This document shows, in pieces, positions 18,701-24,700 of a stretch of DNA of 36,978 nucleotides. Each line of letters begins with the position of its first letter. Position 1 is the first letter of the stretch. Source of the DNA: a virus. Taxonomy: Duplodnaviria; Heunggongvirae; Uroviricota; Caudoviricetes. Position numbers: made by a program. The DNA lies in the IMG/VR virus record IMGVR_UViG_2565956727_000003, positions 1 to 36,978 of that record. One strand, 5' to 3'.

Positions 18701-21700
18701 GACAACCCGGTCGCCCCGAAGGGGTCGATGGGTGACTCACTGACCGGGCTGATTTTGTTCGCCGCTTTGGCCTCCTCGAGGATGTAGCGATAATCCACCT
18801 CCGCACCATCGGTAACGGTCAGAACGCCCATTTCCACCCATTTCTGAAAGCGTTCGGCTGTCCGTCGATCTTCATTTTTCTCGACGCTGTACACCGTGTC
18901 ATACGGTACCCAGAAACGCGGGGCCACACTGTAATAATGCGTTTTACCGTCAATCTCGCGGGTATAAAGTCGCGCCATGCTGTTCATATCCAGCTTACGC
19001 GCCAGGTCAAAGGCCAGAATGCACGGCTGCCCCTCGAACTGCTCAAGGGTCAGTGATTTATCCTCGCAGCTCTGCCAGCTCACCAGGTTGAAATACGCCG
19101 AACGCGCCGACACCCAGATATTGAGGTGTTTTGTTTTAAAGACGTTTGCCAGACGGGCGTTATTTTTCGCACGCTGCTGCTGACTTAACAAAAATTCGCG
19201 ATAAACCGACACGCCAATATTTGGATTGGCTTTTTCCAGCACCTGCGGGTCGGTCCAGTCGTCACCTTCATCAACGGTATAGATGATCCCGAACAGTTCA
19301 TCGTTAGGCACCGAGCCGTTGAGCATCTCGATGACTTCCCGCCGCTTGTCGTAGCACGGCCCCTCAATGTTGTACCCGGCGGTGGTGATGGCCCACATCA
19401 GTGGCTGACGTCGCGCCCCCATCCCGGTAAGCATCGTGGTGTAAAGCGCATCGGTGGCGTGCTCGTGATATTCATCCACCACAGCACAGTGGGGTGATGA
19501 ACCATCACCGGGGTTACCGATCAGCGGTTCAAACCGCGCGCCATCCTCCGGACGGTTCATGTTTGAGGCGTTAACCTCAATCCCGAACGCTTCCGTCAGC
19601 ATGGGTGTGCGTTTACACATCAGTCGCGCCGGGCGAAAGACTTCCCACGCCTGTTTCTCCGTCGTGGCACCGGAATACACTTCCGCGCCAAACTCGTTAT
19701 CACAGGCAAAACAATACAGGGCGACACCGGCAGAGATTGCCGATTTGCCGTTCTTACGGGGGATTTCGGTATACACCTCCCTGAAGCGGCGCAGCCGGGA
19801 GCCTTTATTGACCCAGCCAAACGCGCAGCAGATCACAAAGAGCTGCCACGGCTCCAGCGTGATGGGCATCCTCTTGAATGCCCACTCACCCTTGGTGTGC
19901 GGCAACAGCTGAATAAATTTGGCGGCCCGTTCAGCCAGGTCCTTGTCGAAGCGGTAACGAAACGACTTACTTTTTTCCGCCATCAGGTCATCAAGATGGC
20001 GCTGGCAGGCCTGAATCACAAACTGGCAGGCCACAATCTTTCCGCGCACGACATCACGGGCATACTGATTGGCTGCATTTACATTGGGGTAAGATTTCCG
20101 GCTCATGATTCGATAATTTTCAGAAACGGGTTAGTGGCTTTCTTCTGCCCCGCCAGGCCAATCAGACGCTGGCGGCTGCTGGGGTCGAGTCCGAGCATTG
20201 CCCCCGTGCTGCTCATCTCGGACTCCTGTTCTTTCTTGGCGGTCAGCTCCGGATTTTTGACCATACCGCCCATTGCACCGGTGATGGTGTTGCCCTGGCT
20301 GGCAATATTTTTCACGGCACGTCGCCAGAACTCATAGGCCACACACCACCGCTCAAGCACCGCGAGGTCAGTCACGCACAGCAGGCCCTGACCGCAGAGT
20401 TCTTTGGTTGTCAGTTGCCACATGATCGTGGCGAGAGGGAGATCTTCTTCAGCGAACCACTCCGGTGGCTCAACACCTTTGATGGGCGTAAAAACAGGTT
20501 CATCTTTGTTCAGGGCTCGCTTGCCGGGGTTTCCGGCCAGCGCCTTGCGCGCCGTTGGCTTGGGGCGACGCCCGGAACGCCCCGCCGTTCCAGCCATATG
20601 CGGCACTCCTGGTTAAATTTCATTTTTCGCGGGTATAAAAAAACGATGGGGCGGGCAGTCCGGAAGACGTCAGGTCACAGAGATTTGACCCGCCCCTCCC
20701 CTCAGACAGTTGAGAGTTATTATCACTTAAGCCGTTCACGGGCCGTCTTCGCCTTATGGCACGGCCAGCACAGACTCTGCAGATTGCAGTCAGCATCAGT
20801 GCCGCCATGCGCTTTAGGGATAATGTGGTCAACGGTTTTCGCCTCACGCACCACACCGGCACGCAGGCACAACTGGCACAGGCCTTTGTCACGCTTCAGC
20901 ACACGCGCGCGGATAACGTCCCACTTCGAACCATAACCGCGCTGGTGTCGGGACTGTCCAGGTTTGTACTGCTTCCAGCCTTCGCTTTTGTGGCTTTCGC
21001 AGTAGCCTGACGGGTCTGTGGTTGTAGAGCGGCAGCCGCGAACACGGCAGGCTTTTGGGGTTCGTGAGGGCATTGCATAATACTCTTGGTTGGTTCACGT
21101 GCGATATGTGGCATCCTTTTCAGAATCGAAGCGTACTCCACTACGGTTTTGCCATAAAAACCTCAGGATTTTTTTGTTAGACAAATCGATAGTAAACGTT
21201 CAAATTTACAAGATATTAGCAACAAAATAGCCTCTACAAGGAATCAATATGTTTGATTTTACTCATTTTGAAGAGTTGACTTTAGCATCCCATCAACCCG
21301 ATAGAATAATGACTATAGTTCGGTCCCAAGATGACATTGGTATCTATCTCCGCACTCACCTTTTGATTGAACAAATCTTGGAAGCTTGGATTATCTGTGC
21401 CTCTGGTAACAGGGATTTCTTCAGCGGTTTTGGCGAAAATATCAACATGGATTTTGCCATTAAAGCTCAGCTTGCGATGAACTATGGGATGAGCTCAGAG
21501 CTAAACAAATTTATTCGAAGGTTCAACAACTTCAGAAACAAACGTTCACATCAAATTAACAACTCTGACATCACTAACAGTGAGATTGACTCCTTAACAA
21601 GTCTAATGGAGCACGGTTACCCTGATAGCTTGACCCCCATTAGAGATTTTAAGCTTGGGGTTTACGGAGCAGAAACTAGGGTTGTAAGTTTCACGGGATC

Positions 21701-24700
21701 CTCTACAAGCTTACGCGATAAGCTCATTATGTTATTCGCTATGTTTTCCATGAGGGTACATTACGAAGCAAAATGCTTAAGCACGCCACAGAGCTAGGCT
21801 CTACTTTGATGCTCTAATAACATTCGATTATTTGCATTTCCTGTTGCATTAGCGACCTGCCATTGAGGAGTAAAAATGATCCATACGGTACATTTTTTGA
21901 CAGATGTTACAGTTGCCTCTGTAACTAATCTGATGGATGTCTGCTTAAAAGCAGTTTCAAATACTAATCAACCAGCAACAGAAATTAAGCTCTATATTTC
22001 CAGCAAAGGTGGAGATACAGTTTCAGGCTTTACTGCTTACAATTTTTTAAAGTCACTTGGTGTAAAGGTTACTACGCATAACCTCAGTAATGTTGAATCA
22101 ATCGCAAACGTGATCTATATGGCTGGAGAAGTGCGAACTGCCAACCCACTTTCTCGCTTCCTTCTTCACCCACTGCATTGGGGGTTCGCCGCACCCAGCG
22201 CAGATCACCTACGATTGAGAGAATGGGCTTCATGCCTCGATGACGATCTAAATCGATTTATTCAAATCATGGATATTGAAACAAAAAAGAAAAATCCAAG
22301 TGAGATTGCTGATTGGAAGGATTTGATCACTTCGGCAACCATCCTTCATCCCGGAAGGGCCTCCGAGTTGGGAATTGTTCATCAAGTCGAGGCTGCAACC
22401 ATACCCACGGAATCGATCCGCTGGTGGGTACTTTAAAATCATAATATTCACCATAATGCGAGCTTAGAAGCCCGCTCTTTTTTCTCAGCCTGCCTGATAT
22501 CAGCCTTATCCCGATTGCACTGGCCAAGTGCCGATAGCAGACTGACATTTAAATTAAGACTATTACCCCATGTCATATTATCCGGAATGTCAGGATAAGG
22601 CGTTTCAGCCGTCAGGGTGGCTGGTAACGGAACCACCGGAATGCTCACGTAAACTGTTCGCGTACTTCCGCAACCGCTCAGCAGCGGCAGCAGGCACAAG
22701 GCCTGCAGCACAATCATCATCCGCAACAGCCACTTTGATATCTTTCTGGGTTCTCTGTGACTCCAGTGCGATCTGCTGTTTTGCATGCTGGTTAACCTCT
22801 ATAACTGTATTGACGAGTTGCAGTGATTGCAGGACGTTACGGGTAATGGCTGTTGCAGATTCAGCATTTTGTACAGCCTCATCAGCACGTTTCTTTTCGT
22901 GCTGATATTTGCTGTAGTAGTGGTTGGCAGACCAGATGAAAGAACCAATGACAGTAAAGAAGAATGCGGCGATAACCAGCTTATAGCTCAACTTCATTTA
23001 CCACCCCACCTGCCTCTTTAAACCGGGAAATCAGGTCACTGATTTTATGTTCATACTGACCGTAACCTGCACCAGGTAACGACGCCCAGATATTGCTGCA
23101 ACGATCGATAGCCTGACGGATATCACCGCGATCAATCATCGGTAAAGCGCCACGCTCTTTAATCTGTTGCAATGCCACAGCATCCTGGCTTTTGGGAGAG
23201 AAGTCTTTCAGGCCAAGCTGCTTGCGGTAGGCATCCCACCAACGGGAAAGAAGTTGATAACGGCCTGCAGCTGTTGACTTGAGTTTCGGATTTAGCGTGA
23301 CAAGTTTGCGAGGGTGATCGGAGTAATCAGTGAATAGTTCACCACCAACAATAACGTCATAACCGTGGTTATGTGTCGGTTGTCGCCCGTTATCCGTTCC
23401 CTCTGACCATGCCACCATATCCAGGAAAGCTTTACGCTGGGAATTTAGTACCTGCATAAATTACTCCTTAGAGCCACCAAACTTATTACCGATTACTCTC
23501 ATTGCAGCCCCACGAATAGCATCGACACCGATCAACCCAACGCCACCACCAATGGCAACAGAAAGCGATTTAGGCCATCCGACATACTCAAGAGCGGATG
23601 CAAAAGTCAGCGTCAGAGCGCCACAGAGTAGAATTTCGAGTGTTTTTCGCTTCCAGCCGCCACCACCGCCAAAATAGGCAATACGTAAACCAGCCATAAC
23701 AATCGACATAATCACTGCGCCCAGCGGTGTGTCTCCACGCCACCAGCTCTGGACCAAGTCCAGCCAGGTATTTGGGTTATGAGGCATTTCGTCATCTCTC
23801 ACCTCGCGATATTTGCGGGTACTGTGAAATAAAAAAGCCGCCAATTATTTGGCGGCTTTCAATAAAAAAGAAAATGTTATCGGGGAAGGTGTTGCTTTGG
23901 TCCTTCCCAACTGAAGGAATTAAAAACTTTTTGGATTAAATTTTGCAACTTTGCCAAAGACTCTGTCGAAATATCTACTTCACCATAATAGCCATCAGCC
24001 ATAGTGCACCCAAATTTAGTTCCGAATAAGTTATTCAACATCAATGCCCCCTGAGGTGCAACAACATGAATATTATTTACAGGTTTGAGTTTTATTGGCC
24101 TTGGTTCTTTCTCTGCACCAAGCCCACGAACTCTGTCTTCCATGTGTTGAGCTGAATTCCTTACCTTTCTTAAATCCGGAAAGTCTTTAGAAAGCTGTTC
24201 ATGCAATTTTTTAATGTTCTCTGGCGCGCCATTTTCTTTTGAAATTACCTTTAAAAATTTATCAATAGCATCCAAAGCGTAGAGAAATGATTTTGCATGT
24301 AAGAAGATCAATCTGTGTTGATGAGCCAACGGATATTCACCGTTATTCCATTTTTCTCTTTTTAGACGTAGCTCGACCTCTGAAAAAACCTGTTCTGAAT
24401 ATTCATAAGGTTGATAACCAAACTCTTTACGAACCAGCATTTCCAGTGCTTGTCGTTTCTGTACATCAGCTTGCCATGTCTGAGAAATATTATCGAATTT
24501 ACTGTTATTCTTAGTTCTTTCCTGTTCAAATAAATTTAATGCTACATTAGCATCATAAAATGCAGTTTCTAAATGGGATAATAAGTTATTAAACGTCCAT
24601 TCTAACTCTCTGTTTTCAAACTTAAGATTACTGCCTGGCTTGATTAACTCAAAAACATACATTTTTTCGACCCCTAGTTGTATGGTCGAATAATTATATT

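Follow-up and report, generated by a model that had tools for sequence, protein, structure and literature searches.

Two neighbouring genes in an E. coli prophage, one for a protein with an RNase-like motif and the other for a ClpP-like protein, raise the question of whether a nuclease and a protease work there as one system or simply lie side by side. We addressed this question in a 36,978-nucleotide stretch of DNA (the window; positions 1 to 36,978 of IMG/VR virus record IMGVR_UViG_2565956727_000003), of which positions 18451-36978 match E. coli strain LD91-1 (NZ_CP042585.1) at 99.7% identity. Gene 1 (21249-21797, + strand) is an open reading frame (ORF) of 182 aa, and gene 2 (21876-22436, + strand) is an ORF of 186 aa. 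A preliminary description of the window had proposed that the two form a novel module in which the protease gates the RNase. Our results suggested that they are probably two independent accessory genes ("morons"), stacked head-to-tail in one E. coli prophage lineage, and not a new two-gene system. Gene 1 encodes a HepS-related stand-alone HEPN protein and putative RNase that would be triggered by phage and act by abortive infection. Gene 2 encodes an N-terminally truncated ClpP paralogue of the PpClpP1 type.

Results

Genes 1 and 2 are adjacent only in one near-clonal cassette

Recurrence of the pair in other loci was the check set beforehand for a two-gene module. We fetched 80 ClpP-like and 35 gene-1-like loci from IMG/VR, together with loci from genomes and metagenomes, and searched all 132 of them for both proteins. 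Genes 1 and 2 were adjacent only where both were 100% identical to those of the window, that is, in six IMG/VR contigs and in the complete-genome locus L001. All of the other ClpP-like loci (74/74; 96% to 50% identity) had no gene 1 within their flanks. Likewise, no ClpP-like gene was found in the other gene-1-like loci (84% to 34% identity), which comprised 29/29 from IMG/VR and 10 from genomes or metagenomes. The closest solo relatives were L024 for the ClpP-like protein (96% identical) and L104 and L105 for gene 1 (84%). Both families were also present in IMGVR_UViG_3300011912_000003, about 15 kb apart.

Complete E. coli genomes (n = 5426) were searched at the DNA level. Gene 1 was detected in 15 and the ClpP-like gene in 148, and 133 of these 148 were without gene 1. 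At 99% identity or above, gene 1 always stood beside gene 2 (15 E. coli genomes and six IMG/VR contigs). All co-occurrences thus belong to one near-clonal cassette of about 99-100% identity, and therefore represent a single evolutionary event. The module failed the check, because the adjacency was confined to this cassette. Literature searches for a ClpP-plus-HEPN system, for ClpP-like prophage defence and for a Clp protease with mnt found nothing relevant.

The junction between two sources lies in the intergenic spacer

The two genes are separated by a 78-bp spacer (21798-21875, + strand). DNA homology to the solo gene-1 loci L104/L105 (84.7%) runs over 21138-21815, so that the region upstream of gene 1 (21138-21248, + strand), where its promoter is presumed to be, travels with the gene. 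Homology to the nearest solo ClpP locus, L024, begins at 21817 and covers only 59 bp upstream of gene 2; homology to the other ClpP loci begins at 21874. Since one homology ends at 21815 and the other starts at 21817, a mosaic junction is located within the spacer.

The preliminary description had assigned both genes strong Shine-Dalgarno sequences and a terminator of their own. The first part was supported: a Shine-Dalgarno-like AAGGA in the upstream region precedes the start codon of gene 1, and a GAGGAG in the spacer precedes that of gene 2. The second part did not hold. The sequence 3' of gene 2 contains a weak hairpin with a T-run (22458-22484, + strand), which overlaps the 3' end of the convergent Rz1 (lysC) gene, the T-run lying inside Rz1. 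The hairpin itself (22458-22475, -6.8 kcal/mol) gave z = -1.0, was matched in folding by 31 of 200 shuffled sequences and was not called by the terminator scan. It could be a terminator, but it is indistinguishable from chance. No terminator was predicted in the spacer (fold z = 0.18 against shuffled controls). With the same orientation, 78 bp between them and no predicted terminator in between, the genes may be co-transcribed.

Gene 1 encodes a predicted HEPN protein related to HepS

Gene 1 contains the string FRNKRSHQ, which had been read as an R-N-x3-H arrangement typical of HEPN RNases, and conservation, predicted fold and homology all supported this reading. The HEPN Rx4H catalytic motif R96-N97-K98-R99-S100-H101 (21534-21551, + strand) aligns to R100-N101-K-Y-A-H105 of HepS. 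The 16 close homologues all keep FRNxRxH, with R96, N97 and H101 unchanged. Among 66 distant homologues, E41, N97 and H101 were conserved in 66/66, and R96, N93 and K72 in 65/66. The AlphaFold2 (AF2) model of gene 1 (predicted local distance difference test, pLDDT, 88; predicted template-modelling score, pTM, 0.86) has a predicted HEPN fold, and it resembles HepS beyond the minimal four-helix core.

HepS ("HEPN Solo"), whose family was described in January 2026, is a single-protein abortive-infection system of the Salmonella prophage Gifsy-1 (PDB 9oij/9oik; Sargen et al., Nature 2026; PMC13043305). In the resting state it is a tetramer. It is activated by a peptide of the siphovirus tail-tip protein J, and then cleaves specific tRNA anticodon loops. 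HepS was shown to need no partner, and its authors report no co-occurring partner genes (PMC13043305).

The relationship was detected in both directions. When PDB sequences were searched with a superfamily profile built from the 66 distant homologues (A3), HepS (9oij_A) was hit with E 8.7e-14 along some 107 residues, and NkiRNkfAH was aligned to NNIRNKYAH. The HepS fragment printed by that search, residues 25-131, was the part of HepS used for all comparisons, and it retrieved many members of the gene-1 family by BLASTP at 1e-8 to 1e-14. The close-family profile (A1) alone scored HepS at 20.9 bits, while A3 and BLASTP found homology. For this reason gene 1 is placed, from sequence comparison, in a distant subfamily of the HepS superfamily, with about 20% identity to HepS. 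A tblastn search of the phage collection with the HepS fragment gave no match to a full hepS gene, and Foldseek of the gene 1 model against the BFVD viral structures returned nothing at E <= 0.001.

An exhaustive profile search showed that the gene-1 family comprises 191 clusters at 50% identity, nearly all of them stand-alone proteins of 160-200 aa. Family members gave weak Pfam matches, to HEPN families only. Gene 1 itself matched phrog_5483 (function unknown) and, below threshold, Abi_2 over the motif region. HepS-family proteins have a single domain and fewer than 250 aa, lack a conserved partner and are often prophage-borne. Gene 1, with 182 aa, fits this profile, and its family members are solo in 39 other fetched loci. 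The family of gene 1, that of HepS, had already been described (PMC13043305).

Gene 1 also differs from HepS. It forms a separate subfamily (phrog_5483), its carrier prophage has a contractile tail, and its model has an internal beta-hairpin at residues 135-147. Abi_2 (AbiD/AbiF, PF07751), which shares the HEPN fold, was tried and rejected as the family of gene 1: the weak Pfam match over the motif segment (E 0.042) scored 14.6 bits against a gathering threshold of 25.6, Abi_2 proteins are much longer than gene 1, and the match to HepS is far better.

Gene 2 encodes a truncated ClpP paralogue with a Ser-His dyad

Gene 2 had been aligned by eye to the ClpP core, with candidate Ser and His positions. 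This assignment was confirmed by Pfam CLP_protease (PF00574; MEROPS S14), which gene 2 matches with 47.7 bits against a cut-off of 20.2. Ser75 (codon TCA, 22098-22100, + strand) and His98 (codon CAC, 22167-22169, + strand) align to ClpP Ser97 and His122, and both are invariant in 36/36 homologues. The position of the catalytic Asp171 (Pro151 in PpClpP1) is Ala154 in gene 2, and in 36/36 homologues it is A, S, T or G, never acidic. The protein carries a Ser-His dyad, as does PpClpP1, and not a Ser-His-Asp triad.

The AF2 model of gene 2 (pLDDT 91) found 9uxt_A, PpClpP1 of Pseudomonas plecoglossicida, as its best Foldseek match (template-modelling score, TM, 0.91; 36% identity), whereas ordinary ClpPs gave TM of about 0.8 and about 20% identity. 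The gene 2 family profile matched 9uxt over its full length at E 3e-48. Against the NCBIfam clpP model TIGR00493 gene 2 scored 23.9 bits, far from the cut-off of 308.6, and it is not a housekeeping ClpP by this measure. When aligned with an E. coli ClpP reference sequence, gene 2 begins at the beta1 strand, equivalent to Val42 of the E. coli precursor, and about 27 mature N-terminal residues are missing. Therefore the axial loops and helix A, which provide the pore gate and the ClpX/ClpA contact, are missing from gene 2.

PpClpP1, reported in February 2026, is the first characterised member of its ClpP subfamily and was studied as a chromosomal paralogue affecting growth and motility, not phage resistance (PLoS Pathog 2026; PMC12900304; PDB 9uxt). 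It is a weakly active tetradecamer with a wide pore and does not bind ClpX, but together with canonical ClpP it forms a heterotetradecamer that enhances ClpX-dependent degradation. Its P151A variant keeps about 60% of the activity (PMC12900304).

Gene 2 resembles PpClpP1 in length (186 versus 183 aa), in the N-terminal truncation that removes the axial gate, in the conserved Ser and His, in the non-acidic third residue, and in its close sequence and predicted structure. By these features it is of the PpClpP1 type. The third triad position is Pro in PpClpP1 and Ala in gene 2 (Ala/Ser/Thr/Gly across the family). PpClpP1 was described as chromosomal, whereas gene 2 is prophage-borne and mobile as a single gene. 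Canonical E. coli ClpP shares with gene 2 the ClpP fold and the equivalent positions of catalytic Ser and His; gene 2 lacks about 27 N-terminal residues and the catalytic Asp of canonical ClpP, and has in addition a conserved C-terminal WWV. This nearly invariant W-W-V of the gene 2 family (residues 183-185 of gene 2) lies on a terminal beta-strand of the model (residues 180-185), and PpClpP1 has one W at this position.

Relatives of each gene are carried alone by different prophages

Prophages of Enterobacter and Kluyvera, as well as prophage contigs from metagenomes, carry gene-1 relatives as solo antisense genes, which lie either next to terS or between the lysis and packaging genes. Their loci have no conserved small neighbouring gene. 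At L009 (5632-5883) and L010 (847-1098), a gene of the colicin/pyocin immunity family (PF01320) follows a solo gene-1 homologue (53% identity) on the opposite strand. With the other small ORFs there, the terS junction seems to hold one more stack of accessory genes.

Solo ClpP-like relatives have several settings. In Klebsiella and E. coli prophages they are next to Rz1, in Mu-like prophages they lie within the tail genes, and in Chromobacterium they separate the lysis genes from those for the tail fibre. In P22-like immI regions, the commonest setting in E. coli, the stop codon of an mnt/Arc-family repressor gene shares one base with the ClpP-like gene, an arrangement of translational coupling. 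Examples of mnt-coupled ClpP-like genes come from Pectobacterium, E. coli ATCC 11775, and phages phiv205-1 and PhiR12_1, and the overlapping pairs lie at L136 3163-3947 (E. coli ATCC 11775), L133 4753-5537 (phiv205-1), L015 4747-5537 and L051 3753-4537. In P22, mnt is a lysogen-expressed gene. The ClpP-like gene is probably lysogen-expressed as well, because it is coupled to mnt, which is the best indirect evidence on this point. Its place in the immI regions is roughly that of sieA in P22. Phage records label the mnt-coupled gene 'hypothetical' or, wrongly, 'head maturation protease'. Our literature searches found no description of the ClpP-like gene as the widespread single-gene prophage cargo that its distribution in sequence data suggests.

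Two of these loci showed further peculiarities. In Escherichia phage PhiR12_1, a lambda-like siphovirus, an immI-like block of antirepressor, arc-like, mnt-like and ClpP-like genes (L134 2525-4537) is inserted between the tail-tip genes L and K, an unusual site for an immunity or accessory module. In L042, a 200-aa ORF of unknown function (2777-3379, - strand) takes the place of gene 1 next to a solo ClpP-like gene of 57% identity. The HNH and terS genes of this prophage resemble those of the window, and the locus illustrates cargo turnover at the junction.

The cassette occupies an accessory slot between lysis and packaging genes

The window had been described as carrying two AT-rich antisense ORFs between the spanin and packaging genes, in a bor-like moron position. 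Both ORFs were recovered at exactly these places. On the packaging side stand genes for an HNH endonuclease (20723-21073), terS (20103-20606) and terL (18373-20106), and on the lysis side Rz1/Rz (22448-22997), followed by endolysin and holin. All of these are on the - strand, so that genes 1 and 2 are antisense to both flanks. The GC content is 0.39-0.45 over genes 1 and 2, versus 0.55-0.59 on the packaging side and 0.47-0.49 in the lysis genes. In lambda, bor occupies the slot between Rz/Rz1 and the packaging genes. Because the cassette lies antisense between the same genes, it occupies the equivalent slot, an accessory site of the lysogen-expressed type. It shares position, antisense orientation to the late operon and low GC with bor and the other lysogen-expressed genes downstream of Rz; the proteins themselves are unrelated. 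A megablast search of the cassette against 50,697 phage records gave no match.

Other features of the prophage

The head genes of the prophage are HK97-type, and the tail is contractile and Mu-like (myovirus-type), the tail type being taken from the annotation of L001. An S78 (HK97-type) prohead protease gene (16404-17063) is located between the portal and capsid genes. Compared with L001, the closest complete-genome relative, most of the head module (capsid, S78 protease and portal; 14873-18450) has no high-identity match. Between the DNA-circularisation and tape-measure genes, the window has about 72 bp (~9000-9071) where L001 has about 600 bp, including an antisense OB-fold gene. Both differences point to additional sites of mosaicism or of accessory genes. 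Near the tail-fibre genes, at the left end of the prophage, the stretch 1001-2500 is strongly AT-rich (GC 0.31-0.36). The corresponding position of L001 carries an annotated acyltransferase family protein, which may be an O-antigen-modifying lysogenic conversion gene.

The Q-like antiterminator and the holin flank a third AT-rich gene of accessory type (23877-24662, - strand, 261 aa, GC ~0.36). Its product carries KVRNSAQHMED, another R-N-x3-H string. It hit phrog_5322, a group of unknown function, at 4e-139, and searches of Pfam, NCBIfam, PADLOC and the PDB sequences returned nothing. Membership of the gene-1 family was supported neither by hhalign nor by a phmmer search of the PDB. Reading it as another HEPN-like protein is speculative.

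Discussion

Our analysis indicates that the nuclease-protease pair in the window is probably a stack of two independent prophage genes, each of which would act by itself. By analogy with HepS, the lysogen would produce gene 1 constitutively as an inactive oligomer, to be bound and switched on by a protein of the infecting phage, and a composite active site of R96 and H101 would then cut RNA, so that the infection is aborted. In HepS the RNAs cut are specific tRNA anticodon loops. The carrier prophage has a contractile tail; if the trigger of gene 1 were a siphovirus J-type protein, there would be no self-targeting. By analogy with PpClpP1, the gene 2 product probably forms tetradecamers as well as mixed complexes with the canonical ClpP of the host. 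Such a gate-less Ser-His subunit could alter host ClpXP/ClpAP proteolysis to the benefit of the prophage, with phage exclusion, lysogeny control and host fitness as candidate roles.

Several points weigh against this interpretation. The functions of both proteins are predicted by analogy with HepS and PpClpP1. Identity between gene 1 and HepS is about 20%, and the link between them runs through intermediate sequences and a predicted fold. HepS has trigger-binding N- and C-terminal elements, and the sequence comparison with gene 1 covered residues 25-131 of HepS. PADLOC-DB v2.0.0 (2023), which predates HepS, gave no match at E <= 1 for gene 1 or gene 2, and a PADLOC scan of the 66 gene-1 homologues gave no system-level match, only weak hits to generic HEPN models. 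A consensus scan upstream of gene 1 found no sigma-70 match above chance, and expression in the lysogen is suggested by orientation, base composition and the mnt coupling of relatives. Finally, possible co-transcription leaves a little room for a functional link specific to this lineage, which we consider improbable.

The alternative that survives best is a more specific form of our own explanation. Gene 2 alone may be a lysogen-expressed factor for superinfection exclusion, defence or lysogeny control that works by remodelling host ClpP, for example through faster ClpXP degradation of incoming phage proteins or of proteins of the antirepressor circuit. We put this forward, together with the example, as a tentative possibility. 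The commonest enterobacterial form is translationally coupled to a lysogen-expressed mnt-like repressor, the gene is always inserted solo and antisense at accessory sites of very different prophages, and PpClpP1 boosts ClpX-dependent degradation through its heterocomplex with canonical ClpP (PMC12900304). On the other side, the PADLOC search returned no match for gene 2, and the work on PpClpP1 concerned growth and motility.

Gene 1 might instead be a HEPN-fold protein without a defence role, either an MtlR/YggD-like regulator or a toxin whose antitoxin was missed. This is unlikely. The 66 diverged homologues retain the RNxxxH motif almost without exception, and this speaks for a nuclease. In structure and profile comparisons alike, HepS clearly gives the best match, the solo loci contain no conserved small neighbour, and the genes are located at prophage accessory sites.

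It is quite improbable that genes 1 and 2 form one defence or toxin module, with the ClpP-like protease gating the HEPN RNase by degrading an inhibitor or by processing the nuclease. Same-strand orientation, 78-bp spacing and the lack of a predicted terminator in between are what such a module would show, and every E. coli genome and IMG/VR contig with gene 1 at 99% identity or above has both genes. In addition, gene 2 may need read-through from gene 1, as the homology to L024 upstream of it is so short. However, all these co-occurrences are one near-clonal cassette, and every diverged relative of either gene is without the other. A recombination breakpoint separates the two genes, HepS works alone (PMC13043305), and no ClpP-plus-HEPN system was found in the literature searches or in PADLOC.

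A role of gene 2 in capsid maturation, as an intact prohead protease or as what is left of one, can practically be dismissed; the preliminary description had doubted it too. In its favour are the best PHROG match, to phrog_94 ('head maturation protease', 1.8e-25), the annotation of homologues under that name in some phage records, and scores of about 51 bits with the NCBIfam models for ClpP-related head maturation. These NCBIfam scores are, however, far below the cut-offs (NF045542, 51.2 versus 120; NF045540, 51.4 versus 475). Gene 2 is antisense, far from the head genes and without a scaffold domain, and next to its capsid and portal genes the prophage carries an S78 prohead protease of its own. 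The homologues are never located in a head module; they occupy immI regions, tail-gene clusters or sites next to lysis genes. Among solved structures, the nearest homologue is a ClpP tetradecamer of cellular type.

Treating genes 1 and 2 as independent cargo has consequences for both families. The unannotated phrog_5483 ("hypothetical") and about 190 related clusters are placed, from profile and model comparison, in the HepS family of self-contained sensor-effector HEPN nucleases. This family would thereby gain a subfamily and a prophage slot that are both new, and would extend to a myovirus-type prophage as carrier. A tempting false lead is also removed: when all occurrences are one clone, a nuclease and a protease standing side by side in a defence-type hotspot are no evidence of a system.

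For PpClpP1, our results showed that it has close mobile relatives carried as single genes by prophages. Of 5426 complete E. coli genomes, at least 148 have such a gene, the type strain being one of them, and it usually shares an operon with an mnt-like repressor. It is conceivable, though we hold it only tentatively, that the gate-less ClpP is an unrecognised class of mobile single-gene prophage factor, often mnt-coupled, which would co-assemble with host ClpP, reprogramme ClpXP/ClpAP proteolysis and so exclude superinfecting phages or stabilise lysogeny. The question raised by these findings is why temperate phages carry a gate-less ClpP subunit, and the role of the solo ClpP is the most interesting thread to follow.

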